Source of the DNA: Chiloscyllium plagiosum
Lineage: Eukaryota
Assembly (NCBI RefSeq): GCF_004010195.1
Contig: NC_057718.1
Coordinates: 60,708,795-60,772,794, forward strand
Direction of reading: 5' to 3'
DNA length: 64,000 nucleotides
Shown: positions 6,961-63,568 of the stretch, piece by piece
How positions within the stretch are numbered: the stretch's first letter is position 1
Layout: each line of letters opens with the position of its first letter
Notes under the pieces: generated by a model
What the model was told of the DNA's origin: nothing
The model's database searches: none
What the model saw: the letters and a program-made list of their open reading frames with translations, nothing else
Made by a program: the position numbers and the translations under genes

Positions 6961-7121
6961 AGAAGTCACATGACACTAGGTTATAGTTGAACAAGTTTAT
7001 TTCAAATCACAAGCTTTCAGAGTACTGCACCTTCGTCAAGTGATTTCAAATAAACCTGCTGGACTATAACCTGATGTTGTGTGACTTTTGGCCTTCCTAG
7101 TCCAATGCCAGCATCTCCACA
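6961..7121. mobile_element. Penelope-like family B palindromic mini-element (degenerate hammerhead)
   Basis: Arms gtcacatgacactaggttatagt and actataacctgatgttgtgtgac are inverted; only the right arm has the tail agtccaatgccagcatctccaca; same family as 31377-31590. Confidence 0.8.
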
Positions 7122-8079
7122 CCAGTGAAGGAGATTAATAAAGGAGGGTGGTCCAGGGGTCTCAGCCCCTCTTTCTTGATCACTATGGCTCATGTCCAGA
7201 GAGTGATGGTCTATAAGGTCCAAGCACAAACTCAGCAGCTGTTAACTGGACTTGTGGACTCAGCTGTCACAGCACTTACCAACCTCTCCATGAAGGAAAT
7301 CAATGAGCTTGCCTACCAGAGACATGGCAGAACCTTTAGTTTGGATGAATTCTTGAATCATCCGTATCCTATCTTCACAATGTTTCTGCTACATCCACCA
7401 TACAGTCCACTGTCTGGCTCTTCATCTCCAGAAAGTTTTTTTATGTAGATGAACAAAGGCTAATAATCAATTCAAGGCTCAGCATGGGACTGACCTCTAA
7501 CAATTGTTTGATTGGCTTGGTCTATTACTGTCACAGCCTCTGTTAGCTGCTCTGGTGTCTGATGTTCTAACAGGTTCATGATCCTGGCTCAAGTCACAAT
7601 CATATCCCCATCAAGATGACGATATCTGCACTGGTGGATGGTTACAGAAGCGATGTGACAGTATGCCCTCAGAGGCATCCATATCCTCATCCTCAGAGAT
7701 GGACTGCAGGGTAAAGCCCTGATGAATTTGGCCATCCCTTCAGAAGTTAAGGACCTGCTCTAATGCATATTGATCACAATCTCTCTTCATATCCCTCTGA
7801 CACATACCTTCTTTCTGTTCAATAGTTGGTACCAAGCTCGAGGCCTCCTCACTCTCTTTTCACAGTCCGGCCTCATAGCCAACTATTGTGCTATCTTCCT
7901 CTCTGAACAATTTCACAGCCGTCTCCTCTGCGCATGCAAGTGTTTTTTTTTGTCAGACGCACATCTACATGTCTTTACACATTCATTGGCATAATGTGTA
8001 GACAGAAGGGGACGAGGCATTGTAGCATGGATGGCATCTAAGCTGCTTGTCATTATGTATTCCTTTAATAATTAATGTA

Positions 8080-8530
8080 GCCTTTTGGGGAACTCTTTCC
8101 CATTTCCTCTCATGATCTCTGAAGCTTCGCCTTTTAGAACCCTGAGATACCACCTATCAGGTCCAGGAAACATATCAGCCTTTAGCTCTATTAGTTTACC
8201 TTGTACTTTTTCTCAAATTATAGCGTTATGCTCACAACCTTGGATCCTTCACTATGTAATATGCTTGGAATGCTATTCATATTCTCTACTGTTAAAACTA
8301 ATGCATTTTTAAACTTCAACCGCTCAGCCATTTCCTTATTCCTCATTGCTCTTTCCCCAGCCATGATCTCTAAGGAGCCTACGCTCACTTTGACTTCTAT
8401 TTTCTATTTTCTGTATTTAAAGAAGCTTTTACTGTCCATTTTTATATTATTTTCTAGTTTGCCCTCATAGTTTATTTCTTCCCTTTCAATTTTAATGTTC
8501 TACTTTGTTAGGTTTTACAATTTTCCCAAA
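8080..8530 (-). mobile_element. Degenerate CR1-type internal fragment
   Basis: Resembles the reverse complement of CR1 ORF2 (catcaggtccagga..., the PGPDG region); highly decayed. Confidence 0.45.
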
Positions 8531-11500
8531 CCTCTGGTTTATCACTAATCTTTGATTAATTTTTAGGTAGGCTATGTAAGTTGCTTAAGTAATCTTCATA
8601 ATTCAGTTTTGAAAAAAAAATAAGCTCACGGTGTTAAGTTTTTGAAAAAAAAATTACTAATTCACAGATCTTCCAATGCCAGGAATGTATAATGGAAATT
8701 TGGGCAAGGAATCCAGTGGGGCCTATAGGATTAAGGATCATAATAGACTTATGTCGTGCACACACATAAACTTAGTCCTTAAATTCCACATAGAGATTTC
8801 AGGTGTTCAAAATTCTGTACCAAGAGCATGAATTGAAAAGAAAAACTGCTCTCAAACAGAACATATATGTCAAATTAAATTTAATTGCTGAAATAGGTAA
8901 CAGTTAGCAGTAAATCCACAATCTGGTGTTCACAGCATGACATGATTCTTGGGAAATTGCAGGCATGTTGCCCATGATTTTCCATCCATTAAATTTCATG
9001 GTTGAAAGTCACAGGAAAAAATGCTGCTGCTTTACTGTTATGGACTTCCTGGAAGTGCTGGTACCTGTTAGGAGTGCCACACTACAGTATCACCAAGAAG
9101 AGCTATCCAGCAATAAGACAGACCAATTACCTACATGAAATACATATATGTATGTGCCACTATCCACTGAATAGCTATTGTAAGAAACCATTCTATCAAC
9201 AGAGTCTTGTATTTATGTAATGCCTTTCAGAGAGTAAAATATCTCAAGGTACTTCCCAAGAGCTGTTATCAAATCAATCTTATCAATTTTGGAAGTCTTG
9301 TTTAAAACTGCCTAATTTCTCTTCCTCAGTAACTTACGAGACAGAAAATTAAGCCTGTTAATAAACTAATGTGAGTATTAGTTTGCTTATGCACTGAAGT
9401 ATGCAGCACATGAGAACTGACTGCAATTGTTCACTTCAGAGAGAAGAAAAGTTTCTCATAATGGGAAGAATCAACTTTCAAGGTTCAGTATAGCCAAGTG
9501 TTTTCATTCATGAAGTTCCAAGTCAGGAGAGTTTGAATAAAACTCTTCAAGGTTTTCAATTTAAAAACATTTAGGTCATCAGAGTTGCAAACATTTCTGG
9601 GAGAAATCAGTTAAGTAAAGCATAAGAAATGAAAATACAATTGAAGTTTCTCTAGGATTGAGTATTTGTAAACTGACAGTTGAAAAACACGTCGAAATTT
9701 TAAGTTGTGTTTTTGTTAAGATATTTCTAAATGGCTTCGATTTTTTATACTCAATATTTTTTCCATTGTAAAATAAACTTATGTTCTGTTGCTAAAGAAC
9801 ACGTGCAGCCACATATGACTATATTTCAATGGCTGACCATGTTAAACAATTCAATATATGATCGATCAAGCTGGGTTTCCTTAAAAAATCTGACTTGCCT
9901 TATTATACAGTTTGCAGGGATCATAACACTACTTTGGAAAGGAGAGCAATGAAAAGGAGAACAGATTTGCAAGATGGAGAAGGTGCAACCTTTTAGTTTG
10001 GAAGATTTTAAAACAAAATCTTCCACAGAATGGTGAGAAATTCATAAAGTATAACATAGTTAATGCAGCAAACTCAACCACCACAAGTAAAGCATTACAT
10101 TTTGCATGACGTGTGTTATATATCAATGATATGAAATACACTGAATATTATGTTATTTCCATGTACTGAACAAACTCAGAAGCTGCAAACTAAGATATTC
10201 TGTGCTGCAGCTCCACAAAGGAACTTTAATATTGTAAATGAATAGCTAAGAGTTGATTAGTTGTTGGAACGGTAAGGAGCTTGGCTGGGTCATTTAATAT
10301 TAATTGCCATGGTACTTGATATGGATTAACTTCCTGAACTGAAAATTGCACCAATTTTAATACTGATATGTATAGTATCATATAAGTCAATTGTTTTAGA
10401 ATGATGAAATTGTGGTATTGTTCCTGTGCTATTCAAAGTATGGTTTTAATAAATTATTATAGTTTATAGCAAAACATTTGATATTTAAAATTTATAATAG
10501 TGTACAGTTATATGTAAGCTATATAGTTATTATTAGTTCTTCAAACTGGAGATGCCTAGTGGCATTATCGCTAGACAATTAATCCAGACATCAAGGGAAT
10601 GTTGGGAGACCTGGATTTGAATCGCACTATGGCAGATAGTGGAATTTGAATTCAATGAAAATCTGGAATTAACAATCCCATAGTGATCAGGAAACCATTG
10701 CTGATCGCAGGAAAAAGCCTCAGGTTCATGAATGTCCTGTAGCGAAGAAAACTGCCATCCTTACCTGGTCTGGCCTCCATGGGATTCCAGATGCACAGCA
10801 ATATAGTTCAATCATAACTGTCCTTTGAAATGTCATTCATTTGGAAAAATCATTAGAAAGTCTCAGAAAAGAAAGGAAACCAGATGGATCACCTGGCATT
10901 GATTTAGGTATTGAACATCCAATTACAAAAAAAGCCCTTTCAATTCCTCAAAATCCTCCTTTCTAGGAGATAGTGCCAAAAGTCAAAAACCTGTCTCACA
11001 TACTAGTTAAGATACAACCTGACATAGTTATACTCATGAAATTATACATCACAAACAATGTCCCAGAGCCCCAACATCTTTATCCCTGGGTATGCCCTGC
11101 CCCACAGGCAGTACAGACCCAGCAGAGGTGGCAGCACAGTGGCATTCATTCCAGAGTGGTTTTCCCTGGGAGTCTCATGGTACCAGGTCAAACGTGGACA
11201 AAGAAACATGCTGCTAATTACCATATACCCATCCTCCGTCAGTGAATGAATCATTGCTCCTCAGTGCTGAATCACATTTGAAGAAAGCGTGAGGGTGTCA
11301 AGGGCACATAATGCACTTTGAGTAGAGGGTTCAATGTCCAACATCAAGAGTGGCTCAGCAGGAACACTACTGATAGAGGTCAGGTCCTAAAGGCCATAGC
11401 TGCAAGACGAGGTCCGTAGCAGATGGTGAAGAGGGAACAACAAGAGGGAAAAATGTTCTTGGTAATTATCTGTTACAGTTTGCATCTGTCCATGACAGTA

Positions 11501-11596
11501 TCATTAAGAGTGAACGGCAAACAGTCCTCGTGGAGACGAAGTCTCATCTTCACATTGAGAATAACCTCCATTGTGTTGTATAACACTATCACCATG

Positions 11597-12174: not shown

Positions 12175-12787
12175 AAGGCTACATGAGACAGACTTCAAAC
12201 AGAGCTTGCAACTCAAGACTGGGCATCCATGAGGTGTTGTGGGCTATCAGCCGCAACAGAATTTTACACCAGCACAATCTGCAACCTAAAGGCCTGGCAT
12301 AACCATCGCTCTGTGATTACCATCAAACTTGGGGATCAACCCTGGCTCAATGGAGAGTGCAGGAGGACATGCCAGGAGGGGGATGGGGCATATCTAAAAA
12401 TGAAGTGTCAACCTGCTAGAGCTGCAAAACAGAACTATGCGCATGCTAAATGGCATAAGTAGCAAGTGATAGACAGAGCTAATGGACCAGATTTAAGCTC
12501 TGCAGTCCAGCCACATCCAGTTCATGAATGGTCATGGAGGCTCCACAAATATCCCCTTCCTCAATAATGGGGGAGACCAATAGACCATTGCAAATAAAAA
12601 GGCCGAAGCATTTGCAAAAATCTTCAGTCAGAAATGTCAAGTGGCTGATTGATTTTGACCAGCTCCTGAGGTCAACCAGTAAAGATGCTAGATTTCAGTC
12701 AATTCATGTCACTCCATGTGATATCAAGAAATGGTGAGGCACTGGTTATTGTAAAGCCTATGGGCCCTGACAACATTCTGGTAATAG

Positions 12788-13428
12788 GCGGAAGTGGGTA
12801 CTGCAGATGCTGGAAATCAGAGTCAAGATTAGAGTGGTGCTGGAAAAGCACAGCAGGTCAGGCAGCATCCGAGAAGCAGGAAAAATTGATGTTGCACGCA
12901 AAAGCCCTTCATCAGGAATGAGACTGGGAGCCTCAGGGGTGGAGAGATAAATGGGAGGGGGTGGGCCTGGGGAGAAAGTAGGTGATAGGTGCAATAGGTG
13001 GATAAAGGTGGGGGAAAAGGTGATAGGTTGGAGAGAGAAGGGTGGAGTGGATTGGTGGGAAGGAAGATTGACAGGTGGGATAGGTCATGAGGATGGTGCT
13101 GAGCTGGAAGGTTGGAACTGGGGTAAGGTGGCGGGAGGGGAAATGAGGAAACTGGTGAAGTCCACATTGATGTCATGGAGTTGAAGTGTTCCAAGGCGGA
13201 AGATGAGGCATTCTTCCTCCAGGCGTCGGGTAGCAAGGAAGTGGCAGTGGACCAGGCCCAGGACCAGCATGTCCTTGGCAGAGTGGGAGGGGAAGTTGAA
13301 ATGTCCGGCCACGGGGAGTGGGGTTAATTGGTGCGGGTGTCCCTAAGATGTTCTCTGAAGCACTCTGCAGGAAGTCGTCCAGTCTCCCCAATATAGAGGA
13401 GACCACATCGGGAGCAACAGATACAATA
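12788..13428 (-). mobile_element. 5'-truncated Penelope-like element (family A): GIY-YIG C-terminus, 3' region and hammerhead-bearing terminal repeat
   Basis: Minus-strand VYCICCSRCGLLYIGETGR..FREHL and HFNFPSHS..RRLEEECLIFRLGTLQ; perfect 16-bp TSD aacattctggtaatag at 12772-12787 and 13429-13444; degenerate core ctgatgaagggcttttgcgtgcaa at about 12892-12915. Confidence 0.9.
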
Positions 13429-14970
13429 AACATTCTGGTAATAGTACTGGACACTTGTGCTCCATGACATGCTGCATCGACAGCCAAGCAGTTCCAGTAC
13501 AGCAGCAACAGTGGCATCTACTTGACAATGTGAAAAATTGCCCAGCTTTGTTCTGGACACAGAAATGATAAATCTAACCTAACCAATTACTGTCCCAACA
13601 GTCTACTTTTAATCATCAGTAAAATGAAGGAAGTTGTCATCAACAGTGCTATGTTGTAGCACATGCTGAGCAATAACTGGTTTAGTGATGCCCAGTTGGT
13701 GTTCTGACAGGGTTCATTCAGCTTCTGGCCTGAATGCAGCCTTGGTTCAAACAGAGATAACAGAGCTGAATTCCAGAGGTAAGGTGAGAGTGACAGCCCT
13801 TGACATCAGTGCCACAATTGACTGAGTGTGGCATCAAATAGCATTTGCAAAACTGGAGTCAATAGCAAATGTGGGAAAACGTTTTGCTGGTTAAAATCAT
13901 AGCTGACATATAGGAAGGTCATTACGGTTGGTTGGAGGTCCAGCAAGTCATTGCCAGGATATCTCTGCAGGAGTTCCTCAGGTTAGTTTCCTTGGCTGAA
14001 ACATCTTCACCTGCTTCATCAATGAACATCCTTCCATCATAAGGTCAGAAGTTGGATGTTCATTGATAATTGCACAATGTTCAGCATCATTTACAATGCT
14101 TCAGATATTCAAGCAGCCCATGTTCAAATGCAACAAGACCCTGGACAATATTCAGACTTGAGATGAAAACTGGTAACTAACACTCATGCTGCACAATAGC
14201 TATCTCCAATCCCTCACTATTAACATTCTGTGGATTGTCACTGACCAGAAACTCAACTGGACCAGCCATGTAAAGTTAGCGACAGTAAGAGCAGGCCAGA
14301 GGTTAGGAATCTTACAGTGAATAACTACTTTCTGACCTCCTATAAGACACAAGTCAGGAATGGAATGGAATACTTCCCACTTACCTGAATGAGTACAGAT
14401 CAGAAAACATTCAAGAAGTTTGCTGTCATCCAGGTCAAAAGCTGACGTGGTTAGCAGAACATCCACAAACATCCACCCTCTCCATCATCGATGCTTAATC
14501 ACAGCAGTGTATACCATCTACGAGATGCACTGCAGAAATTTACTAAAGATCCTCAGTCAGCACGTTTTAAAGCAATCATCACTTCCGTATAGAAGGACTT
14601 GAGCAGCAGATGCATAGGAATACCACCACTATCTGTGAGGATCTAAAATCTGGATTTAGGCTGTTGTCAGGAGCAACCATTTAATGCATGCTTTTACTAA
14701 TTACAAAATGGTTTCTTAATGCAAGTAACGTAAAATAACATAACAAAATGGCTTCTAGGAGCAATGGCATCTAACTTCGCTGAAAACTGCATTCCTGAAC
14801 TAACTGAAAGAGATTAACAAACAATGCCCTGTTCATAGTATAAATTAACTAAGCAAGATAGGACATTATTAAAGTATTCAAATTGGCATTGGAAACCAGG
14901 TGACAAGGGATGAAGACGCGAAACCAAGTTAGTTCCCAAGAAATATCATTGGCTTAATTTTGTGTCTTCT

Positions 14971-15110
14971 AGGAGAAAGTGAGGACTGCAGATGCTGGAG
15001 ATCAGAGCTGAAAAAGGCTCCTGAAGAAGGGCTCATGCCCAAAACGTCGATTCTCCTGCTCCTTGGATGCTGCCTGACCTGGTGCGCTTTTCCAGCAACA
15101 CATTTTCAGC
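14971..15110. mobile_element. Penelope-like family A inverted mini-element
   Basis: Inverted tail aggagaaagtgaggactgcagatgctggagatcagagctgaaaa, then forward ctgaagaagggctcatgcccaaaacgtcg; flanked by gcttaatttt(g/a)tgtct (14952 and 15109). Confidence 0.85.
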
Positions 15111-15257
15111 TTAATTTTATGTCTATTTGTCACATCATTTCTTATTATTGGATTAATTTTGCAATTAGGACTTCTGTTTCTTAAGAGACCTATAAAAAGT
15201 TGTCTGTGTTTTAAGATTGTGTGCAGCTTTTCCAGAGTACACAGAGGTGTTTAACCT

Positions 15258-24968: not shown

Positions 24969-25664
24969 TAATGACAATAACAAAACTAATAATAATAAAG
25001 CTACCTCCTCGTTTATAATGACAGTTACAGATCATTTTGTTTGGTAAGGACGGATGAAAAGTAATCATTTTATCCCGTATTGATATCATCGCTTTTTGGA
25101 CCCTATTCATACCCACACCTCTTTCACTCCCCTTTTACTATTACTGCATCCTTTGAAGACTTCTAGGTTCAATTTTATATTACCTACGAGTCTCTTCTCA
25201 GATTTTCTGCTTGCCTCTAATTTGTTTTTCACTTCCTCTGTGATCTTTATGCAACTTTACCTCTAAAGTTCAGAAACTGGGAATTAAAATGGACACAATC
25301 TCACATGGAATCCAACACAGTTATTGAGAATTTTATGCAAAACTGTTTTAATTAAATTATGCATTTCCTCTCAGATAGTCATTTAGAGATCACTGTAGCT
25401 CTCTTAGGAATGATCTTCTACCAAGATTCCCTTTACTTGGTTCACTGGGACTGTTTTGTCTTCCTTTTTGAGGACTTTTGCATGGAATATTTTCAGAGGA
25501 TTACATACAGAATGCAATGTTGAATGAGCTCATCTTCAATTCGCTATATAGTGAATTCCATATACTGTACCAATATCTGGGGGAAGGGATGTTCAAAGAT
25601 AGTCGCCATTCTTAAAAGTAAGATGCAGTTTGGCAATGTTTAGCTCTCAGTCCCTGCCAAAATG

Positions 25665-25845
25665 ATGTGGAGGAGTTGGTGTTGGATTGGGGTGGACAAA
25701 GTTAAAAATCGCACAACACCAGGTTATAGTCCACCAGGTTTTTTTGGGAGCACTAGCTTTTGGAGCACTGCTCCTTCACCAGGATGCTCGTGCTTCCAAA
25801 TAAACCTGTTGGACTATAACCTGGTGTTATGTGATCTTTAATTTT
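25665..25845. mobile_element. Penelope-like family B palindromic mini-element
   Basis: Tail plus arm acaacaccaggttatagtcc, then inverted arm ggactataacctggtgttatgtg; hammerhead on minus strand is mutated. Confidence 0.85.
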
Positions 25846-31099: not shown

Positions 31100-31210
31100 C
31101 TTCAGTTCCGAAGAAGGGTCATTGGACTCAAAACATTAACCCTGCTTTCTCTCCATGGATGCTGACCAGATCTGTTGAGTTTCTCCAGAAATTTCTGCCT
31201 TTGTTTGCTT
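31100..31210 (+). mobile_element. Older Penelope-like terminal repeat (family C) with decayed hammerhead
   Basis: ccgaagaagggtcattggactcaaaacattaac then gatgctgaccagatctgttgagtttctccag; related remnants at about 3225-3310, 33420-33515 and 49580-49690 (minus). Confidence 0.55.
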
Positions 31211-31376
31211 CAGGAAATAAGTTACTCAGCACAGAATTGCCAGCCCCTGACCTGCTCCTGCAGTTACCTTTCTGGTCAATTGCAACCTCCATGATTTGGT
31301 AGTGGGGGATTCAGTGATAGTAACACAATCAGATGTCAAGGGCATGTCATATCCAGGAATTATATGATATTCCTGA

Positions 31377-31590
31377 TTTGGAGATGCTGGTGTTGGAGAG
31401 GGGTGTACAAAGTTAAAATCACACAACACCAGGTTATAGTCCAACAGGTTTATTTGGAAGCACTAGCTTTTGGAGCGCCGCTCCTTCATCAGCTGGTTGT
31501 CACCTGATGAAGGAGCAGCGCTCCGAAAGCTCGTGTTTCCAAATAAACCTCTTGGGACTGTGACCTGGTGTTGTGTGATTTTTAACTTTG
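31377..31590. mobile_element. Penelope-like family B palindromic mini-element
   Basis: About 85-bp inverted arms around ctggttgtcac; tail on the left arm only; TSD tat(g/c)atattcctga at 31363-31376 and 31591-31604. Confidence 0.9.
31501..31535 (+). ncRNA. Minimal type I hammerhead ribozyme, intact core (family B)
   Basis: cac CTGATGA a GGAGC agc GCTCC GAAA gctc | gtg: stem I cac/gtg, 5-bp stem II, palindromic AGCT stem III, CUC cleavage triplet. Confidence 0.85.
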
Positions 31591-32139
31591 TATCATATTC
31601 CTGACTTTCAAGGTAAAGATTTTGTGCAAAATGGACTTCTGAAATGTATGCCTACACACATGCTAAGGTTTAAGTGTCCCTTTGTGATTTCTACTTAAAC
31701 AAAATTCAGGACTCTGGGTTGTTCTTTGCATGTACATAGCCATGTCTGCACCACCCTCCCACTCAAGATATGAAACTACTAGCTAATTTACACCTCCTAC
31801 TGACTGGATATTTACTGAAACTCAAAATCAATAGTTCAATGTCTGCAAATAATACACTTATCAAAGAGGAGCACAGAGAAACCAGTTTATCACAAGTAGG
31901 TGTGGACAGTCACCATTTGTATCCCATTGTGTAGCAACAGCTTTTAACTTTGAATCATTTATGTCAACTGTAGATCATGACCTCATTGGCCAAAGACCAT
32001 AGAACATTCTAGAATGATGAGTGTGAAGGGCATTAAAGCACACATACCTGGAAGCCAGCCCCTTATTGAAGAGGCAGTGAAGCATCAGTGAAGATTTGCA
32101 GCAAAGACTTACAGCAACACTTGTTGCAGAAGACTATAT

Positions 32140-32421
32140 TCTGGATTAGTGGTGCTGGAAGAGCACAGCAGTTCAGGCAGCATCCAAGGAGCAGTGAAAT
32201 CGACGTTTCAGGCAAAAGCCCTTCATCAGGAATAAAGGCAGTGCTGATAAGCTCTAGCTTATCTCTCCATGCTTCAGGCTCACTGTCTTTATTCCTAATG
32301 AAGGGTTTTGCCTGAAACGTCGATTTCGCTGCTCCTTGGATGTGGCCTGAACTGCTGTGCTCTTCCAGCACCACTAATCCAGAATCTGGTTTCCAGCATC
32401 TGCAGTCATTGTTTTTACCTC
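32140..32421. mobile_element. Penelope-like family A palindromic mini-element
   Basis: About 105-bp inverted arms, about 37-nt tail on the right arm only; perfect 14-bp TSD gcagaagactatat at 32126-32139 and 32422-32435. Confidence 0.92.
32198..32233 (-). ncRNA. Minimal type I hammerhead ribozyme, intact core (family A)
   Basis: Minus strand attc CTGATGA a GGGC tttt GCCT GAAA cgtc | gatt; palindromic ACGT stem III, GUC triplet. The partner copy at 32295 (+) has CTAATGA. Confidence 0.8.
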
Positions 32422-33224: not shown

Positions 33225-33360
33225 ACTCATTCCTGATAAAGGGCTTATGCCTGAAACGTCAATTCACCTGCTCCTCGGATGCTGCCTGACTTGCTGTGCT
33301 TTTCCAGCACCACACTCTCGACTCTGATCTCCAGCATCTGCAGTCGTCACTTTCTCCTAG
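33225..33360 (+). mobile_element. Penelope-like family A terminal repeat
   Basis: cctgataaagggcttatgcctgaaacgtc...ctccagcatctgcagtcgtcactttctcct; TSD core cctacaacag at 33209 and 33362. Confidence 0.85.
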
Positions 33361-34069
33361 CCCTACAACAGCCTATGTTTTAAAAACAATCATTTCCTTT
33401 AATATCAGCGCAAGAAACAGCACTGACAAAGGGTTACTGGATCCAAAATATTACCTCTGTTTTCTTTCCACAGGAGCTGCTAGAACTGTTGGGTTTCTCC
33501 AGCAATTTCTGTTTTGGGTGTTGAGTGTTCATGCGGTAGGATCTTCCTGTTCTGCAACTCTTAGAGAATTTAGTGTTCAAAATATCTTGCAGTCTATTCT
33601 GGTATAGTTGGATGTAGATTGCAAAACAAATAATCTAAAGACAAAATTTGAATTTACTGCTGACCAAGCAATGAATGGAAATGAAAAAAGCTTCAGCCTC
33701 CAGTTTCCTCTAGTTGTGCCTATGAATGTGTTGGTAGCTCATCCTGAAAATGTGATAGGGTTCAACTTCCAAATCCTGGTGATCCACAAATCTTTCAGTT
33801 CAGGCTTGCACTGCCTTTGCAATGTCGAGGGATAGCCCAAAAATCCCCCACTAAGAGCTTCCTGACATGAAGTGGGGTATGATTTATTGATGATCTGTGA
33901 CTATCACACCATGATACTTGTATTACTTCTCATAATAAGGACGGGATGTGGGTCTCATTGTTTTGAAGAATTCAATGAAGTTTTATTACACTGATATTGA
34001 TATATGCAAACCACAATCTCAGGCAATTGCATATCTGAGCTCAAGCAAATTGGATGTATGGCAGTTGGT

Positions 34070-34912
34070 TCAAAATCACACAACACCAGGTTATAGTCCA
34101 ACAGGTTTATTTGGTAGTACCAGCTTTTGGAGCACTGCTCCTTCATGAAGTAGCTAGTGGAGCAGGATCACCGGATACATGAGTTATAGCAAAAGATCAT
34201 AGTGTCATACAACTGATGTGATATATTGGACAAACCTAGATTGCTGTTGTCTTGCATCTTTTAGAATGGGCTGCGTGTGTACGTGTGCGCACACACACAC
34301 AAACGCACGCGCGCACACACACAAACACACACACTCTCTCTCTCTCTCTCTCTCCCTGACATACACACGCGCACACATACAAGTCTATGGGGTGAATTTG
34401 ATTTGTAGAATTGTAGTTGCAAATACATTATACTTTGTTCAAAAAGCACACGATCTGTTGGGAGTCAATCCATATGAATTTTATAGATTCCTACTTTGGA
34501 ACTAGAACCAGTCTGACTCAAGATTGGAATACATACAGACTCTAACCTCACAACTTCAATGCATTGTCTGAGCTGAGATGCCACCTTTTTTTATAAAACC
34601 TTAAGTTTTCTCTGGAATGTGACTTGAAAGAAGTTCTGAGATTTACATATTAATGAATCAAAATCTGCAACCCATTCTAAAAGATGAAAGACTTAACAGC
34701 AATTTAGGTTTGTTCAACATATCGTTTCAATTGCATGACACTGGGATCTTTTGCTATAAATTTTGTGTCCTATGATCCTGCTCCACAGCTACCTGATGAA
34801 GGAGTAGTGCTCTAAAAGCTGGTACTATCAAATAAACCTGTTGAACTATAACCTGGTGTTGTGTGATTTTTAACTTTGTCCAACCCAGTCCAACAACGGT
34901 ACCTCCACATCA
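34070..34912. mobile_element. Longer Penelope-like family B element with about 200-bp inverted arms and an internal microsatellite
   Basis: 34072-34272 is the reverse complement of about 34666-34870; decayed hammerhead ctgatgaaggagtagtgctctaaaagct near 34793; possible degenerate TSD (12/16 match) at 34054 and 34912. Confidence 0.85.
34275..34380. repeat. Compound (CA)n/(CG)n/(TC)n microsatellite
   Basis: Directly visible dinucleotide runs. Confidence 0.9.
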
Positions 34913-36473
34913 TTTATAGCATTAGGTCACATGCTATGGTATGGTGTTGGTTTCACAAGCTTTTTCCTTAAAGGTATATTAGGCACCTGCTGCAAGACCT
35001 CGCATAACATTTTCCACCAATGGCATTACCCTAACTGCTGTAAAGAGTTTAAAGACTTAGACTTGATTTCAATGTCCTTCGTTGTTCATGTAGCCGAGAC
35101 AAATAAAAAATGATATATCACTGCTACAGCTTACAGCTCAGTCACTGACTGAGTTTTGTCTTGGTTGTCTTGTTATTTTAAAACGAGTTGAATGAACTGC
35201 CATTCATAATCTTTCATAGAACCTGGATGCTTTCTTGACTCAGAGGGTGTATCTATGATCAACTTCATTACACAGATGTTTTCATGTGGGTTTCTGTATC
35301 TGAGTATTCACAATTCTTCCTTCATGAATCGAAACACTAGTCATCTAAGCCAGTAAATCCAAACATTTTGATTATGTAGAGACATCTGTTCAAAATTACA
35401 GTATGAATTTTAGAATTTCTCAAAATACTGCATTGTCAAAGATGGAGTCCAGTCTTCACAAAATATATCAGTAAATCCATCAATAAACCAATTGTTAGTA
35501 AACCAATGCATAATAATACATAATACATACAGGCTTCCAGTTTATTCTCTCCTTTCATGAGCAAGAGTCTTAAGTTGATAAGAAATTTCAATGATAAACT
35601 TTGCAAAGGGCATTAGCAACTGATAAAACAACAAGAGAAAATTTTTGATAAATGTCAAATGTGTTGATAACATTGCAAATTGCAATTATCAGGTTATATT
35701 AATTTTTTAAATATTGAAATGTTTAAGGCTGAGAACTGAAATTGACCATTGTTAAGTGGGTGCTGAAATACTTACTTTCACCTTTCCTGACTGCAGCTAA
35801 GGAATTCTTTAACGTATACTCAGTTTCTATAAACCATGTTGGGTGGGTGAGAACAGAAACCAGTTGTCAAGGACAAAAACATCTTGGGTTGATGGGGTCA
35901 GGATTGGAATCCTCTGACCCCGATTAATGGAGAGACGTGAGGTATTTATGGCTCCACCTCGACTTTTAGCTACCAGGATAGAGCCGCTGAGAACTTGGTT
36001 CATGTGGAAATTTGTTGCTCAGTACGTTAATTCATTTTAATCCTACTACACACCACCCCATGTTTTAGACACAACCCAGGCATTAAAGATATGGGAATCT
36101 CTCTGGCAAGGTTTTCAAAAGTAAAACTTGGACTTTTCGCCCACAAACTTTATTACTTTATAAGACAAATCAAATGCCTGAATTAACTTTTTTTATTGTT
36201 GATTGCGCATATATGCAAATATGATATCAATGGATATATGATGCATTTGTAAAATTTTTCTGGCTGTAGCAGAGAACAAAATACAATTCTATCAAATAAA
36301 ACCTTAGCATTAGAAGGTAATCTTTGTGCACATCGCTGGTGGGTACTATCATTGATCTGTAATGATTTTGCTTAGGGCTGAGAGACTCCAGATCAATCGC
36401 TGGGTCAGTCCAAATAATCAGATTCTATTAAAATCACTGAAGTCACCCTGTAACCTGCCAAACTTGAACAAGT

Positions 36474-36660
36474 AGGAGAAAGTGAGGACTGCAGATGCTG
36501 GAGATCAGAGCTGAAAAATGGAGGGAGGGCTTATGCCCGAAACGTCGATTCTCCTGCTCCTTGGATGCTGCCGAAGGGCTTATGTCCGAAACGTCAATTC
36601 TCCTGCTCCTTGGATGCTGCCTGACTTGCTGCGCTTTTTCAGCAACACATTTTTCAGCTC
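36474..36660. mobile_element. Penelope-like family A inverted mini-element with tandem partial hammerheads
   Basis: Inverted tail followed by two tandem agggcttatg(c/t)ccgaaacgtc units lacking the CTGA part of the core; perfect 15-bp TSD caaacttgaacaagt at 36459-36473 and 36660-36674. Confidence 0.92.
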
Positions 36661-38939
36661 AAACTTGAACAAGTCGAAAGGTCAGTAATGACTAGAAATG
36701 ACATGTCTACAACACTGAAATTACAGGTACAGTGTCTCAAAACTAGCATCACTAGGACCAAGTCAGGGTTGGATTTTAGATCTTTCCAGTTTTGAGGGTA
36801 AGAAAATGAAACCTTTACTAGATTAATAGGAATTACATAAAATCACCTGAATCAGTTTATTTGTATTAAAGTTTGCAAAAAAAATACATAATAGAAAAGG
36901 AATAACACTTTTAAAAATACAAACAACGTGACAAGGAAAGCACATGGTTTCCCAGGCTGCGCTAGATTCAAAGCATGGATGTTCTAAGCAGCGTCAAGGA
37001 TTGTTCACACCACTGGATGCATGTGAAAATGCTGGCCCGCAAACTCACTGACTCATCCGGCACGCCACCATGCCAATGGCAACACCTGACAAGAATTGCT
37101 CCAGCAAATTATTTTTGTCATTTGATATCAATTCACATTGGAGGATGGAACTTATATGAATGTTTAGCTAACTCCAGTTTTCAGATAGTCAAACTTGTGA
37201 CACTGTACTTCTATTATTAAAAATAACATTATCTTCCATGAAAGAATGATTAGAGATGAAAAGTCTGTTTATTCATGGGACATGGTGTCATCAGAAAAAT
37301 CAGCATGTATTGATTAATTCCATTTGTGGTTTAATATATGGTAATCTATATGACATAAACTTGTGTTTTCTTGAGTCAGAAATCTTGAAGTTTATTTTTA
37401 CAACACTAACTACTAGCAAGGCTACAATATGCACACAAACAGTCTGAGTCTTGTGCTTACTGATGCTAAAGTATTTTTGCACATATATAACTGTCTCACT
37501 GAAGACTGCAGTCATTCCATTCGACTGATAGAATTACTGAAGATGGTGAAACATAACATCATGATGTCATGGCAGTGTATAGGCCTGACTGTTCTTAGGA
37601 TATGGTGATGGTGATGAATTGCCTTCTTGAATACAACTCAATAAATTTCAAAGGGCAGATAAGATTTAACCAAGTTACTGTGTTCTGGAATCACTTGTAG
37701 GCCAGGGTATGTAAGTAACTGACAGATATTTGTGAACTAGATGGGCTTTTACAATAATCCAATACATGCATTGTCATCATTATTGATATCAGTCTTTTAT
37801 TCCATTATACATTTAATTAATTGCTTTTAAATTTCCAGTTACAATGATAACATTTGAACACATGGATCAATCATTAATTGAGGACTCTGAATATTAGTTC
37901 AGTAACATACTAAGATACCACACACCTGCAAAGCTCTCCAACACCACCGTTACCCCTTTCAGTGGGATCATTTTAAAATGCTTGTTTAGTCTTAAAGTCA
38001 ACTATTGATCATTTTGATTATTGGATTAATTTATTGTCACCCTAACAAAGTACTACTGAATACCATCCATATAGGGAATATATTATGCCTCTTATTAGTC
38101 TCAATTACTGACAAAATGATGTACAGACAGGGTCATTGTAGTTATGAGTCCCTTCAGGCTTCATTAAAACTGGAAACATTGGACATTTCCTCATTAGTAA
38201 CAGTCTCCAAACCAACTAATAAGTTACTTGCTTGCTGAGATTTGAAGTGGGAAGGCGATTAATTCGCATGATGATCGATATTGCAGTTACTGTTAAAGCT
38301 TCTATGTAATGGGGAGACAACTTTACTCGTCTCAACTTCATGCTTGCCCACAACTGAGACTCAGACTGATTACTGTCAGAAATGCAAGCTGTGAATGTTA
38401 GAAACTTTCAAGCTCAGAACATTTACTAATTTCTTTAATGAGTTTTCTTGCACAGTTAATTGCTGGAAATGTTAGATCTGAGTCAAACTTCATATTATGA
38501 TCGAAAGCAGGCAATAGTTCTTTGTCACTTCAACTTACGTAATACTTTATTGAAATATTTATTTGAATGAATAATTTGGGTTATACAATTGGGGCTGGTT
38601 GCCTACGTTTGAATTCTTACCTTAGATGAGATTTGTCTATCGGTATGGCCCTGAGGTATGCTTTCTACAAGGTTGAGGGAGGGTTTCTGGATGGACGACT
38701 CAGAAGAAAGTCTTTTAATAGTTTTACGCATCTAACAACTGACCTAATTAACCAAGTGGCTGTCTGTTAGACAGGATATCAACAAAGAAAGTGTAGGCAG
38801 AAAGGAAGAGATTATGAACAGTGATGGGTGTAGAATCAGATCGGGATTGAGTAATGGGAGATGGTCGTTGAGGGGAAAAACCATGTAAGCAAAAATCCAG
38901 AGATTGTTGAAATCACAGAGAGAGAGTTCCAGGATGGCC

Positions 38940-40756: not shown

Positions 40757-41115
40757 GGTCAGTGATTTGGATCTGTCTTAAGAAGCTAGGCAGGTCAGAC
40801 AAGTCCAGACAAGTCATGGGGACAGTGATGAGCTGGAAGTTTGAAACTAGGATGAGGTGAGGGAAGGGGAAATGAGGAAACTGTTGAAGTCCACATTGAT
40901 GCCCTGGGGTTGAAGTGTTCCGAGGCGGAAGATGAGGCGTTCTTCCTCCAGGCGTCTGGTGGTGAGGGAGCGGAGGTGGAGGAGGCCCAGCACCTCCATA
41001 CCCTGGGCAGAGTGGGAGGGGGAGTTGAAATGTTGAGCCACGGGGCGATTTGGTTGATTGGTGCGGGTGTCTCAGAGATGTTCCCTAAAGCGCTCTGCTA
41101 GGAGGCGCCCACTCT

Positions 41116-41655: not shown

Positions 41656-41690
41656 TCCTGATGAAGGGCTTTTGCCCGAAACGTAGATTT
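41656..41690 (+). ncRNA. Minimal type I hammerhead ribozyme, intact core (family A)
   Basis: tc CTGATGA a GGGC tttt GCCC GAAA cgta | ga: perfect stem II, ACGT palindrome, GUA triplet. Confidence 0.8.
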
Positions 41691-41919
41691 TGCTGAAGCT
41701 CCTCGATGCTGCCTGAACTGCTGTGCTCTTCCAGCACCATTGATCCAGAATCTGGTTTCCAGCATCTGCAGTCATTGTTTTTACCTTAGACAGATCCAGT
41801 CTGAGATTTGGACAGATTTGAACATAAACCCAGTAGATTTAAACACTTGTCGGTTAGTGAGGTGAGACAATTTGCTTACTTTTGGTTACTTATGGTTGGT
41901 TAAATTAAAAGTGAGAGAA

Positions 41920-47439: not shown

Positions 47440-48362
47440 CACAGATGACACTAAAACTGGAGGTGTGGATTGCAAAGAAGGTTACCTCAGATAACAATGG
47501 GATCTTGATCAGATGGGCCAGTGGGCTGAGGAGTGGTAGATGGAGTTTAGTTTAGATAAATGCAAGGCGCTGCATTTTGGGAAAGCAAATCTTAGCAGGA
47601 TTCATATACTTAATGGTAAGGTCCTAGGAAGTGTTGCTGAATAACGAGACCTTGGAGTGCAGGTTCATAGCTCCTTGAAAGTGGAGTTGCAGGTGGATAG
47701 AATAGTGAAGAAGGCTTTTGGTATGCTTTCCTTTATTGGTCAGAGCGTTACGCATAGGAGTTGGTAGCTCATGTTGTGGCTATGCAGGACATTGATTAGG
47801 CCATTTTTGGAATATTGTGTGCAATTTTGGTCTCCTTCCTATCAGAAGGATGTTGTGAAACTTGAAAGGGTTCAGAAAAGATTTACAAGGATGTTGCCAG
47901 GGTTGGAGGCTTTGAGTTATAGGGAGAAGCTGAATAGGCTGGGGTTGTTTTCCCTAGAGTATCAAAGGCTGAGGGGTGATCTTATAGTGGTTTATTAAAT
48001 CATGAGGGGCATGGATAGAATAAATAGACAAAGTCTCTTTCTCTGGAGTGGGGAGTCCTTAACTAGAGGGCATAGGTATAGGGTGAGAGGGGAAAGATAT
48101 AAAAGGGACCTAAGGGGCAACATTTTCATGTAGATGGTATGCGTGTGTGGAATGAGCTGCCAGAGGGAGTGGTGGAGGCTGGTACAATTACAACATTTAA
48201 AAGGCTTCTGGATGGGTATATGAATAGGAAGGGTTTGGAGGGATATGGGCCAAGTGCTGGCAGGTGGGACTAGATTAGATTGGGATATCTTGTAAGCATG
48301 GACAAGTTGGACCAAATGGTCTGTTTCCATTGTGTACATCTCTATGACTTTATGACTCTATG
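47440..48362 (+). mobile_element. CR1/HER1-like LINE 3' 0.9 kb
   Basis: DDTKTGG start; LIRPFLEYCVQFWSPSYQKDVVKLERVQKRF; tail ctatgactttatgactctatg; inserted into the tail of another LINE. Confidence 0.95.
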
Positions 48363-50449: not shown

Positions 50450-52408
50450 TGTAAAAATGAAAGTATGTAACCTCTTCTTTCAATACATAAGAACCAAACG
50501 AGAGGCAAAAGTAGATATTGGGCCGCTCCAAATTGATGCAGGAAGACTAGTGCTGGGAGAGAAGGAAATAGCTGAACAACTTAATAAATACTTTGTGTCA
50601 GTCTTCACAGTGGAAGACATGAGTAATATCCCAACAATTAAGGAGAATCGGGGGCAGAGTTGAGTATGGTAGCTGTTACAAAAGAGAAAGTGCTAGAAAA
50701 GCCAAAAGGTCTAAAAATTGAGAAATGTCCTGGCCCTGATGGGCTACATCCTAGAGTTCTGAGGGAGATGGCTGAGGAAATAGCAGAGATGTTGGTTGTG
50801 ATCTCTCAAAAGTCACTGGATTCAGGGAAAGTCCTAGATGATTGGAAAATCACTGTAGTAACCCCCTTGTTCAAGAAAGGATCAAGACAAAAGATGGAAA
50901 ATTATGGGCCAATCAGCCTAACCTCGGTTGTTGGTAAAATTCTAGAATCCATCGTTAAGGATGAGTTTTCTAAATTTTTGGAAGTGCAGGGTCAGATTAG
51001 AACAAGTCAGCATGGATTTAGAAGAGAAGATCGTGCTGGCAAACCTGTTAGAATGCTTTGAAGACATAACAATAAGTTAGACTAGGGAAACCCAGTGGAT
51101 GTTATCTACCTAGACTTCCAAAAGGCCTTTGATAAGGTGCTTCGCGGGAGGCTGCTGAGTAAGATGAGGGCTCATGGTGTTCAGGGTGAGCTACTGGCAT
51201 GGATTGAGGATGGCTGTCTGATAGAAGGAAGACAGTTGGGATAAAAGGTTCTTTTTCAGAATGGCAGCTAGTGACAAGTGGTCTCCTGCAGGGTTCAGTG
51301 TTGGGGCCGCAGCTGTTCACTTTATATATTAATGATCTGGATGAAGGAACAGGGGGCATTCTGGCAAAGTTCACCGATGATACGTAGTTAGGCGGACAGG
51401 CAGGTAGTACTGAGGAGGTGGAAGAAGGGTTCATTGCCGAAACGTCGATTCTCCTGCTCCTTGGATGTTGCCTGGCCTGCTGCGCTTTTCCAGCAACACA
51501 TTTTCAGCTCTGATCTCCAGCATCTGCAGTCCTCACTTTCTCCTTGCAGAAAGATTTAGACAGTTTAGGAAAGTGGTCCAGGAAATGGCTGATGAAATCC
51601 AACATGAGCAAATGTGAAGTCTTCCACTTTGGAAAAAAGAATACAGGCCTGGACTATTTTCTAAATGGTGAGAAAATTCATAAAGTACAAAGGGATCTGA
51701 AAGTTCTAGTCCAGGAATCTCTAAAGGTTAACTTCTAGGTTGAGTCCGTGATTAAGAAAGCGAATGCAATGTTGTCATTTATCTCAAGAGGGTCGGAATA
51801 TAAGGCAGCGATGCACTTCTGCAACATTATAAAGATCTAGTTAGGCCCTGCTTACAATACTGTGTCCAATTTTGGGCCCCACACCTCAGAGTGGGCAAAC
51901 TGGCACTGGACCATGTCCAGCAGAGATCCACACAGATGATCCCTGGAATGGTAGACCTAACATACGATGAACAGCTGAGAATCCTGGGATTGCATTCATT
52001 AGAATTTAGAAGATCATGGGGAGATCTAATAGAAATGTACAAGATAATGCATGGCTTAGAAGGGTGGACGCTGGGAAGTTGTTTCTGTTAGGCAGGGAGA
52101 CTAGAACCCGTCAGCACAGCCTTAGAATTAGAGGGGGTCAATTTAGAACAGAAATGAGGAGACATTTCTTCAGTCAGAGAATGGTGGGCCTGTCGAATTC
52201 ATTGCTACTGAGCGCAGTGGAGACCGGGCTGTTAAACGTCTTCAAGGCAGAGATTGATAAATTCTTGGATCTCGCAAGGAATTAAGGACTATGGGGAGAG
52301 TGCGGGTAAGTGGAGTTGAAATGCCCATCAGCCATGATTAAATGGCGGAGTGGACTCGATGGCCAAATGGCCTTACTCCCACTCCTATGTTTTATGGTCT
52401 TATGGTCT
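50450..52408 (+). mobile_element. CR1-type LINE, 3' 2 kb (second subfamily)
   Basis: CPGPDGLHPRVL..VTPLFKKGSRQKMENYGPISLTSVVGKILE; YLDFQKAFDKV; QGSVLGP; tail ttatggtcttatggtc. Confidence 0.95.
51421..51544 (+). mobile_element. Penelope-like family A terminal repeat inserted in CR1 RT
   Basis: gaagaagggttcattgccgaaacgtcgatt...ctccagcatctgcagtcctcactttctcct; starts inside the hammerhead core; no TSD seen. Confidence 0.88.
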
Positions 52409-60174: not shown

Positions 60175-60393
60175 CAGGTAGTTCTTCTATTAAGTGATGG
60201 TTGCATTCTTGTGCAACACCGCATTATAGAAAAATTGCACTTTAGAAACAGTGCTTAAAGTGTTGACGACGTAACCACATTATAGTCAACTCAAATTTTA
60301 AAAGCTTGTGCTTTCAAAACTACATCTTCAATCTGTCAATTGCATTACAGTGAATCCACGTTAACAAAACGCACATTATCGCAGAGTGACCTG
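60175..60393. mobile_element. Tc1/mariner (Tigger-like) MITE
   Basis: Imperfect TIRs caggtagttcttctatta ... ttatcgcagagtgacctg followed by TA; internal repeats of cattatag. Confidence 0.55.
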
Positions 60394-62384: not shown

Positions 62385-62630
62385 TATCGGCTTTGTTGTA
62401 ATTTCATTGCAGAACTAATCCAGAGGCCCAGGTTAATGCTTTGGGGAAATGGCTTCCCATCCCATCATGATAGTTAGTGAAATTTACATCAATTAATATA
62501 ATCTGGATATGAAAGCTGGCTGAAACTATAATTAATGGATGTAAAATTCAGTCTGGTTTACTAATGCCCTTTAAGCAAGGAAATCTGAAGTCCTTACGTA
62601 GTCTGACATGTATATGACTTGAGATCTTCA
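62385..62630 (+). mobile_element. Decayed copy of the SINE/LINE head seen at 10548 and 24641
   Basis: taatccagaggcccaggttaatgctttgggg..tctggtttactaatgccctttaagcaaggaaatctg. Confidence 0.6.
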
Positions 62631-63221
62631 ATAATATGTATTCATAGGATCCTCTCAGTGTAAAAAGAGGCCATTTGGTCCATAGCATCTGCACCGAACA
62701 TCCAAACAGCATCTCAGCCAGACCCAGCCACCCCAACCCTATTCCCCTTAACCCTTGCATCTACCAGTTTTCTGAGTAAAGACCTCTTCTGAGGTGTATG
62801 TTTAAGCACATTTTTGGTGACTGGCACAAAGCCAGTGTTGGTTTTATAAAACATTGGGCTGCATTTACCTCCTTCCTGCAGAAAATGTGAACAATGACAA
62901 GTCAATTAGGAAAGTATGACAAAATAAAAAAAAATTCTAAAATTTGAGAAAAAGTCCAGTTTTGCATGCAAGGTTTGAACAATTTGATGGGAATCTTACG
63001 AGTGAGTAGCAAGAGACCATTTGCATATATCTGCATCTCATTGTTACCTTTTCTTGGCTCACTTAAATAGTTTGCTTTTCTCCCACACAGCAGAGAGAAA
63101 TTAGATAATTCCTGGCATGAAAGATGGGGGGTGGTGGTGATGGTGAGGGGTAGTACCTGGAAGCTTATGACTTGCCCTTCTGCACCTCCACCTTAGCCAG
63201 TTTTCCCAAAATCACAAGGCA

Positions 63222-63568
63222 CACTCCAGCTCAACACTGTCCTCATGACCTGTTTTACCTGCCAATCTCCCTTCCCACCTATCCACTCCACCCTCCTCTC
63301 TGACCTATCACCTCCATCCCCACCCCATTCACCTATTGTACTCTTTGCTACCTTCCCCTACCCTCCTCTCTGAACTAGCACCTTCACCCCCACCCCCAAT
63401 CACCTATTGTACTCTTTGCTACCTTCTCCCCAGCCCAACCCCATTTATCTCTCTACCCTGCAGGCTCCCTGCCTCATTCCTGGTGAAGAGCTTTTGCCTG
63501 AAACGTCGATTTTTCTGCTCCTTGGATGCTGCCTGACCTGCTGTGTTTTTCTAGCACAGCTCTGATCT
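63222..63568 (+). mobile_element. Penelope-like family A 3' fragment with a 70-bp internal tandem duplication and mutated hammerhead
   Basis: Reverse complement of about 12830-13110; units start at 63290 and 63360; core ctggtgaagagcttttgcctgaaacgtcg at 63480. Confidence 0.88.

Follow-up and report, generated by a model that had tools for sequence, protein, structure and literature searches.

5' ends of Penelope-like element copies in Chiloscyllium plagiosum pile up at the 5' edge of their hammerhead motifs, not at the predicted cut site

The window, a stretch of 64,000 nucleotides of Chiloscyllium plagiosum DNA (NC_057718.1, 60,708,795 to 60,772,794), is crowded with small hammerhead ribozyme motifs, which raises the question of what carries them and what part the ribozyme plays in making the copies. 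A first-pass annotation had listed 16 sites, all of which were matched within about 15 nt. Positions are given as C3 of CTGANGA. Profile search and reference alignment placed family A at 12915-, 15021+, 32229-, 32295+, 33233+, 36519-36572+, 36573+, 41658+, 51421+, and 63480+, and family B was located at ~7039-, 25782-, 31492-, 31504+, ~34149-, and 34793+. The stems were as described, i.e. GGGC/GCCC followed by ACGT in family A and GGAGC/GCTCC followed by AGCT in family B. Two or three families had been proposed; the genome proved to hold at least five, and family E added two decayed window copies (31108+ and 33423+) that were absent from the first list. The window contains the following features.

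6954..7118, both strands: family B head-to-head pair; short minus arm with decayed hammerhead (C3 ~7039), tailed plus arm starting past the hammerhead
12785..12920, minus: family A terminal repeat, decayed hammerhead (C3 12915) and tail
12921..13400, minus: 3' UTR with the broken end of a GIY-YIG endonuclease, lying immediately upstream of the 12915 hammerhead; frame match stops 217 nt before it
14969..15115, both strands: family A; inverted tail piece on the minus strand, to which a short plus copy is joined (C3 15021, G12 lost)
25662..25845, both strands: family B head-to-head pair; tailed minus arm (C3 25782, decayed), short plus arm
31108..31200, plus: family E hammerhead copy, decayed
31370..31591, both strands: family B head-to-head pair; tailed minus arm (C3 31492, G12 lost), short plus arm (C3 31504, core and stems intact); the outer ends share a direct repeat of 10 nt, and AATAAA stands after each hammerhead
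32127..32419, both strands: family A head-to-head pair; short minus arm (C3 32229, core intact, G-U at 10.1-11.1), tailed plus arm (C3 32295, broken); close to the outer ends, a direct repeat of 8 nt
33226..33358, plus: tailed family A copy that begins at -7; C3 33233, hammerhead broken
33423..33505, plus: family E hammerhead copy, decayed
34068..34876, both strands: two divergently oriented family B copies and part of the 3' UTR; hammerheads decayed (C3 ~34149 minus, 34793 plus); helix I variant TAC/GTA, and a TATAAA lying 40 nt ahead of 34793
36473..36695, both strands: family A inverted tail piece and two same-strand 5'-truncated copies (36519, 36573), neither with an intact CTGANGA
40862..41071, minus: open stretch of 70 aa from the C-terminus of the family A GIY-YIG, which served as a query
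41656..41786, plus: tailed family A copy next to an N run; C3 41658, core and stems intact
51421..51545, plus: tailed family A copy whose truncation lies within the core
63358..63580, plus: family A copy that includes 123 nt of 3' UTR; C3 63480, hammerhead broken

A strict descriptor gave four matches in the window, one of which, at 51410, was out of register, and Rfam hammerhead families at gathering thresholds gave none there. Core, stem II, 15.2-16.2 palindrome, and two base pairs of helix I were all kept in three of the 17 scored window copies (31504+, 32229-, and 41658+), a set that includes two partner arms without a hammerhead and excludes the short 36519 piece. In evenly spaced genome samples totaling 1.38 Mb, the strict descriptor was matched 90 times versus 1, 0, and 0 times in three shuffles. 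Genome-wide, exact patterns were matched 59,945 times for family A and 5,172 times for family B, and reversed-pattern controls gave 0. Thus, the strict-descriptor matches are not due to chance. The motifs have the CUGANGA ... GAAA ... NUH core with stem II of minimal hammerheads from Penelope-like elements (PLEs). Helix III is loopless, with the palindrome ACGU in families A, D, and E and AGCU in family B; one extra base lies between 9 and 10.1 (A; in family D, T), the 10.1-11.1 pair was G-C in 15 of 15, and helix I of family D comprises 3-4 bp.

What carries the motifs is the terminal repeat of PLEs with a Neptune-type linker, and the fold is that of a minimal type I hammerhead; the first-pass annotation had rightly pointed to PLE terminal repeats and to such hammerheads with a palindromic, loopless helix III. 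Families A and B both lie behind RT-linker-GIY-YIG frames, with ~180-245 nt (A) or 465-710 nt (B) between frame end and hammerhead. The suggested linkage of family A to GIY-YIG coding sequence holds at 12915-, where the frame ends 217 nt upstream, and is shared by family B. Natural copies of both families carry a CX4CxxC linker ahead of the endonuclease; DKG and thumb motifs are present, and the union of RT and C-terminal GIY-YIG in one frame was read from natural broken copies (thumb, linker, and endonuclease). The linker conforms to the CX2-5CxxC of Neptune, a form common also to Nematis. Protein relatives come from cartilaginous fish. One of them, P0002, scored above the Pfam cut-off for GIY-YIG and only below it for RVT_1, and three fragments from the genome itself gave no Pfam matches. 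Twelve loci with long "open frames" were rejected as full-length intact frames, their length coming from N runs; no unbroken full frame was seen, because the long copies hold such runs. The tail continues into shared body sequence in six of 153 tailed family A copies, and into an N-terminal frame in locus L124, but in none of 55 tailed family B copies. The pseudo-LTR was accordingly seen on both sides of the coding body in family A and on the downstream side only in family B.

The annotation had further envisaged a very large reservoir of self-cleaving motifs. Its numerical side stands, with 59,945 exact family A matches; the reservoir itself does not. Core and stems were kept in 43 of 245 family A and 13 of 69 family B sampled copies. 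Catalytic G12 lies in a CpG and was for that reason altered in 16% of the family A and 37% of the family B copies scored. The copies decay like neutral DNA, and therefore they do not constitute a ribozyme reservoir. An actively maintained stock of self-cleaving copies would draw on the extrapolated ~110,000 family A and ~33,000 family B copies with intact core and stems and on the low variation (0.04) at non-CpG core positions, which is no clean test of selection because the flank columns used for comparison are inflated by indels between references. Against this, G12 decays at CpG rates, the copies are mostly truncated or broken, and in vitro monomers do not cleave and dimers do so weakly, according to the available text of PMC4209133; we consider such a stock highly improbable. 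The hammerhead fold nevertheless appears to be maintained by selection in master elements. A helix I pair of family B was C-G in 78, U-A in 12, U-G in 9, and C-A in 1 of the 100 matches listed. Structural covariation between families, as proposed earlier, was borne out for helices I and II; the covariation score was 0.52 and 0.49, reached in 0 of 500 shuffles, a test inflated by related sequences and run with family B one column out of register on the 3' side, which counts against structure. In cofolding, the dimeric helix III was not the lowest-energy form.

The ends of the copies were then informative in another way. With both arms of each pair entering the counts, 104 of 231 family A and 34 of 65 family B copies had their 5' end between -10 and +9 relative to C3, amounting to 5.2 and 1.7 ends per nt versus 0.24 and 0.04 upstream. 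The usual start was at about -4 in families A and E and at -8 in family B, often behind an extra G, and this edge coincided with the 5' arm of helix I in all three. By comparison, starts ≤2 nt from the predicted cut site numbered six of 231 (A) and two of 65 (B), no more than in the surroundings, and copy ends bore no genomic footprint of cleavage. The 110 family A and 35 family B copies that start at -15..+9 divide into those joined to an inverted copy (66 and 23) and those whose flanks are unique (43 and 12), plus one lying against an N run; shared flanks did not occur. The pile-up is therefore not a reference artefact. A splice acceptor before the hammerhead was rejected, the flanks being without a shared first exon, and a bump of family A starts at +24..+40 was found to consist of inversions, clipped alignments, and other families.

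Near neighbors were mostly arranged head to head on opposite strands. Their outer ends shared at least 7 nt in 43 of 70 pairs (control mean 2.3), and among 71 pairs 62 were long plus short, nine short plus short, and none long plus long. The pairs are single insertions with features of endonuclease-positive (EN+) PLEs, namely a one-sided tail of 30-40 bp, an inverted 5' copy, and a target duplication. Because the arms lie on opposite strands, they cannot form a dimeric hammerhead within one RNA. At the 3' side, copies ended either at a short site or ~35 nt later (tail); ends before +50 were found in three of 141 family A and one of 35 family B copies (first 800 kb, no anchor required). Family B RNA was polyadenylated at +55/+57, ~27 nt past the predicted cut (601 and 487 reads), in a single sample whose organism is possibly a relative and whose reads may stem from host transcripts ending in B copies. 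AATAAA or ATTAAA was present in 54 of 59 family B copies. No such hexamer was found in 191 of 207 family A copies, and RNA reads of family A exhibited neither strand bias nor poly(A).

These boundaries bear on the published model, in which long tandem transcripts are cut by dimeric hammerheads, circularized, and copied as circles into tandem insertions, with later truncation creating the observed ends. The palindromic helix III in all families (ACGU, AGCU) and selection on the fold suit this model, as does the dimeric cleavage in vitro reported in the available text of PMC4209133 and of the review PMC6765202. It calls, however, for starts or ends at +28/+29, where those near the cut site and before +50 are as few as stated above; furthermore, circular RNA would lack a fixed 5' end at -4/-8, and most near neighbors are inverted. 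We regard the model as quite unlikely.

The extra G was most pronounced in family B. Directly before ACAAYCAC, where full copies carry C, G stood in 2,255 of the 3,293 non-C cases. Among the first 100 matches listed, a hand tally gave a G:A ratio of 67:10 at this position versus 53:47 two bases inward (Fisher p 1.7e-6), and this control position was itself above background (p 0.003). A modest excess was seen in families A (66:34) and E (45:27), tallied by hand among the matches listed. One base further out, the C of the UTR was found at none of 30 family B loci and G at 11 of 30; the G adjoined an inverted arm able to supply it in 23 of 30, and the remaining 7 of 30 were solo copies with unique flanks. 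The family B junction lies 30-32 nt after TATAAA, which was present at -40 or -38 in 21 of 75 family B contexts, and family A has TTATCT instead at about -35. The extra G in family B suggests a copied cap. Reverse transcriptases can also add C at uncapped ends. Untemplated G in L1/SVA has been attributed to the cap (PMC3287187). The hammerhead 5' edge is likely the capped transcription start of the element. The pile-up that this predicts failed to appear in family D, which has a hammerhead and TATAAA at -45..-53 (three of 31 copies start in -45..-20 and two in 0..+9). In RNA reads from a 3'-end type library, no position with many molecule starts was listed. Two loose read ends, L011:2590 and 1540, resembled the 5' edge and were set aside, as they match subfamily differences in the 3' UTR.

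Two other origins of the edge were weighed. It might be a processed RNA end, at which a 5'-3' exonuclease or a paused reverse transcriptase halts at helix I or a bound protein and the G is an untemplated addition. Such processing would fit an edge that falls on the helix I 5' arm in families A, B, and E alike, the frequent G one base further out, and the lack of a canonical TATA box in family A. On the other hand, the shift from -4 in A and E to -8 in B follows the TATA distance rather than helix I, family D has no pile-up despite its 3-4 bp helix I, and a reverse transcriptase, on its 3'-to-5' course, would halt ahead of the fold and not beyond it; we judge this origin unlikely. Alternatively, the edge might be made at the DNA level, by the endonuclease nicking its own repeat or by second-strand synthesis joining through microhomology. 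The endonuclease of a lizard PLE prefers ATT near its own ORF-repeat junction (available text of PMC11167929), family A has ATT at -4..-2, and many inverted junctions overlap by a few bases. Family B has no ATT there, though, and solo copies with unique flanks share the edge and carry the G, so that a DNA-level origin seems very unlikely.

Our preferred reading, a capped start at the hammerhead 5' edge with twin-primed strong-stop-like cDNAs and an uncleaved template, is probably the best overall explanation. RNA would start 30-32 nt after a TATA-type box that an upstream copy provides in its 3' UTR, and the hammerhead would therefore fill the first 35-40 nt of the transcript. The element protein would nick both target strands and prime reverse transcription at two internal sites. 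Each cDNA would run ~90 or 125 nt to the cap, copying it as an extra base, and such cDNAs would be inserted alone or joined head to head; alternatively, the cDNA would jump to the matching stretch at the RNA 3' end, giving a long copy. The RNA template would stay uncleaved, and the job of the hammerhead would likely be a slow, protein- or dimer-dependent cut removing the cap (5' copy) or the poly(A) tail (3' copy). Such a cut would therefore be a regulatory switch, not a step forming insertion ends. In the available text on the lizard PLE, reverse transcription in vitro had two internal starts with both strands extended, and cleavage was protein-assisted and dispensable for insertion (PMC11167929). 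The model predicts RNA that starts at -4 or -8, is polyadenylated at +55/+57, and serves, uncut, as the template for cDNAs of ~90 and 125 nt. A further-reaching proposal, which we put forward tentatively and with some doubt, is that the pseudo-LTR is a functional U3-R-U5, the hammerhead being R between cap and poly(A) signal and the 90-125 nt copies, hundreds of thousands in number, being twin-primed strong-stop cDNAs. If true, strand transfer through R would regenerate the repeat, telomerase-related retroelements would have an LTR-like cycle with no tRNA primer or integrase, and the ribozyme would be a decapping or de-tailing switch. The copy number of this genome is high enough to read the element cycle from its products, the edge position suggests how PLEs rebuild their terminal repeats, and hammerhead motif counts in animal genomes would mostly count dead insertions.

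The association of hammerheads with PLEs, which the first-pass annotation already treated as known, was published in 2014 (Cervera and de la Pena, PMC4209133); new here is the 5' pile-up at the hammerhead edge rather than the cut site. As far as the available text of that paper goes, its pseudo-LTR hammerheads likewise have a loopless helix III, palindromic 15.2-16.2, an extra base between 9 and 10.1, a fixed G10.1-C11.1, a short helix I, several families per genome, and mostly solitary truncated copies with some opposite-strand pairs. The scale differs, with 59,945 exact matches to one pattern here versus ~9,000 in Xenopus and ~4,000 in coelacanth; the available text includes no cartilaginous fish, and that study did not map copy ends. 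The EN+ PLEs of the Neptune clade (Craig et al. 2021, PMC8557442, available text) similarly combine RT thumb, CX2-5CxxC linker, C-terminal GIY-YIG, hammerhead pseudo-LTR, inverted 5' copy, and a one-sided tail of 30-40 bp, whereas most copies here consist of nothing but the terminal 90-125 nt and begin at a fixed 5' edge. In Anolis, the Poseidon element PAc (Frangieh et al. 2024, PMC11167929) also has two 3' ends one tail apart, a repeat that includes the first codons, and no sign of cleavage forming the inserted copy; it belongs to another clade, and start site, cap signature, poly(A) site, and long-plus-short pairing are undefined in the available text. Penelope of Drosophila virilis (Schostak et al. 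2008, PMC2377424, available text) likewise starts inside the pseudo-LTR, with an upstream copy driving a downstream one; here, by contrast, an upstream TATA-type box is predicted. The available text of PMC8557442 and PMC2377424 states the job of the hammerhead and the rebuilding of the terminal repeat as open. Animal non-LTR retrozymes are PLE-derived non-coding units with type I hammerheads, too, and one chondrichthyan genome was positive for them, but their units, each with a complete hammerhead, are arrayed in tandem, head to tail (available text of the preprint by Li et al. 2026, 10.64898/2026.07.22.740005), whereas here dispersed solo or head-to-head units with tails are found; the window holds one same-strand pair, with both cores broken. 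In the literature searched, outside subscription papers and Repbase, we found no paper on shark PLE hammerheads, no report joining a Penelope retrotransposon with an extra G and a cap, and none joining Penelope-like strong-stop with pLTR.

A U3-R-U5 LTR consists of a promoter, a stretch present at both RNA ends with the poly(A) site, and a stretch up to the priming point, and gives rise to minus-strand strong-stop DNA. The family B repeat would work like such an LTR. It is not a member of the LTR retroelements, since it has neither tRNA primer nor integrase, the target nicked by GIY-YIG primes, and the short product is itself inserted.

All sites listed in the first-pass annotation were refound, within ~15 nt, by profiles made from the window copies. 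The 64 kb yielded 4 matches to a strict descriptor, one being out of register, and core and stems were preserved in 3 of the 17 window copies scored, the majority being broken; an Rfam scan of the window at gathering thresholds returned nothing. Positions were counted from C3 of CTGANGA (zero), which places the predicted cut directly behind +27 (family A) or +28 (family B). In 138 evenly spaced 10-kb genome pieces (1.38 Mb), the two window neighbours not being among them, the strict descriptor found 90 matches (shuffles: 1, 0, and 0). Exact-pattern counts in the 3.56-Gb genome were 59,945 for family A, 5,172 for family B, and 0 for controls; extrapolated totals are ~630,000 A and ~180,000 B pieces. 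Of the "two or three families" annotated, A and B were borne out, but the number was too low: C (few copies), D (915 exact matches), and E (294) exist besides. Intact same-strand hammerhead pairs of family D (409 nt apart, G000:C3:16186542 and 16186951) and family E (177 nt apart, C4:54039858 and 54040035), on genome contigs C3 and C4, are candidates for natural dimeric cleavage. The window also holds a 31-nt tandem array (4649-5357) adjoining an N run, and LINE remnants that we take to be of CR1/L2 type:

26441-27007, LINE reverse transcriptase-end remnant
47756-48357, LINE reverse transcriptase-end remnant
50642-51061, LINE reverse transcriptase-end remnant

As annotated, family A is tied to GIY-YIG coding sequence, its hammerheads lying ~180-245 nt downstream of the frame end; those of family B lie 465-710 nt downstream of a different GIY-YIG frame (with a few outliers). 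For 17 listed frame ends no hammerhead match was found within 1 kb. Reverse transcriptase DKG and thumb motifs, a CX4CxxC linker, and the endonuclease are visible in natural broken copies; linkers of this type mark Neptune and Nematis in the sections consulted of PMC8557442. The named protein relatives of family A (4 of 7 matches) are unannotated and come from Chiloscyllium punctatum, Rhincodon typus, and Leucoraja erinacea, which makes a cartilaginous fish the probable host. Family E is linked to an A-like endonuclease and family D to a different, presumably Poseidon-like one. The tail continues into common body sequence in 6 of 153 tailed family A copies, and at locus L122 an ATG within the repeat, ~18 nt beyond the predicted cut, opens a frame that continues across the tail. 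Hammerheads also follow the frames; the repeat is thus placed on both sides of the coding body, as in other PLEs. At family D loci L197-L204, L169:5697, and L192:4955 the hammerhead lies within ~100 nt of the frame end, with a long stem II and a tail. At L019 and L133, family A pieces are fused to or inserted in family B copies, one starting exactly at the B core.

All families preserve the core, G10.1-C11.1, and the palindrome, but helix I varies on both sides, its first pair being C-G in A, B, and C, U-A in E, and A-U in D. The claimed structural covariation held: scores from pair counts were 0.52 and 0.49 for these related sequences, with family B one column out of register, 0 of 500 shuffles scored as high, and every slid control was lower. 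In one of the two runs (0.49), further pair types were no more numerous than in shuffles. The third helix I pair of family B was C-G in 78, U-A in 12, U-G in 9, and C-A in 1 (hand count, first 100 of 3,538 matches). G12 was changed in 16% of family A (116 copies scored) and 37% of family B (36 scored), a rate resembling that at other CpG sites. Sequence comparison indicates that the fold is under selection in master elements, not in copies. With intact copies numbering 43 of 245 in family A and 13 of 69 in family B, a large reservoir of self-cleaving motifs was an over-reading. In one A subfamily (L040:5050 and related copies) all 4 bp of helix I pair perfectly (ATTC/GAAT) and AATAAA occurs near +77, unlike the larger subfamilies, which have a U-U mismatch and no hexamer.

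For mapping of ends, copies were located via +50..+70, which is independent of the hammerhead, against 50 natural long copies; those <250 nt from a sample edge were excluded. In 104 of 231 A and 34 of 65 B copies the 5' end lay within -10..+9, a pile-up of >20 times the upstream density. Family E showed a pile-up as well (19 of 56 within -10..-1). Flanks at the pile-up were inverted copies or unique, none shared. Within 2 nt of the predicted cut there was no excess over surroundings (A, 6 of 231; B, 2 of 65). The 3' ends fell into two classes ~35 nt apart (A, 115 short and 104 long; B, 31 and 31). Head-to-head pairs, defined by 5' ends no more than 40 nt apart, numbered 71 with those of the window; 62 were long plus short, 9 short plus short, and none long plus long. 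Outer ends were alike over at least 7 nt in 43 of 70 pairs, mostly 9-17 nt (control mean, 2.3). These pairs are single insertions.

Judged from its bases, the 5' edge looks like a transcription start site. TATAAA occurs at -40 or -38 in 21 of 75 family B contexts, truncated copies included, and at -33 in 2 of 25 family E contexts. The edge base is an A, numbered -8 in family B and -4 in families A and E, ~30 nt past the box at the TATA position, in what we take to be a pyrimidine-A initiator-like context. On the opposing side, neither a canonical TATA box nor a poly(A) signal is present in family A, which has TTATCT near -35, and family D fails the prediction, no 5' pile-up having been found there. 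Family D, with hammerhead and tail, thus offers a natural comparison with A, B, and E. TTATCT (e.g. window 63445) is a GATA site in reverse and is conserved at the TATA position in A subfamilies whose 3' UTRs otherwise diverge. Before the edge A, G replaced the C of full copies in 2,255 of 3,293 family B copies with a non-C base. G:A there (hand counts over the first 100 rows) was 67:10, versus 53:47 two bases inward; it was 66:34 in family A and 45:27 in family E, with a background of ~39:61. All 30 fetched G-bearing B loci had junctions with differing flanks; 23 adjoin an inverted arm, and the extra G may in part stem from that arm or have been added independently of a cap. In the passages seen of PMC3287187, the untemplated G of full-length L1 and SVA insertions is ascribed to a copied cap.

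RNA data came from X20, a raw poly(A) run on single cells of which ~2% was read, the organism being possibly a relative. Family B poly(A) reads ended at +57 (601) and +55 (487), and reads in the poly(A)-site bin were 1,273 sense versus 234; host transcripts terminating in B copies may account for part. Family A had neither strand bias nor tail in this run. AATAAA or ATTAAA lies upstream of the site in 54 of 59 B copies, with a GU-rich tract downstream; the poly(A) site of the repeat at L011 (+38 to +80; also window 31504-31591) is complete and in use in RNA. The ~180,000 family B pieces may thus provide terminators for host genes. Since B copies extend 30-65 nt past this site, their 3' ends cannot derive from the polyadenylated end; they are compatible with priming within the 5' repeat.

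According to the portions consulted of PMC11167929, in PAc, the Poseidon PLE of the lizard Anolis, both target strands are nicked and extended, reverse transcription begins at two internal sites spaced one tail apart, cleavage is protein-dependent and dispensable for insertion, and RNA-seq ends at the cut site were not found. Together with the present data, this points to a likely cycle. Transcription would begin at the hammerhead's edge; priming at two sites would give cDNAs of ~90 and ~125 nt running off at the cap, to be inserted singly or joined head to head, one per strand. Alternatively, a cDNA might jump to the RNA 3' end, where the same stretch recurs. The hammerhead would rarely act, removing cap or tail, and its effect could go either way, because ribozyme cleavage in a 5' UTR can also allow cap-independent translation (PMC13725137, in part).

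Our literature search returned no publication dealing with PLE hammerheads of sharks, and none describing a cap signature or a strong-stop product for PLEs; Repbase and the supplements of PMC4209133 or a 2026 preprint may list such motifs. What was consulted of PMC4209133, PMC8557442, and PMC3846280 already describes PLEs with hammerheads in their repeats, with tails, and with inverted copies. The motifs thus belong to an already described kind but give a testable lead on PLE self-copying.
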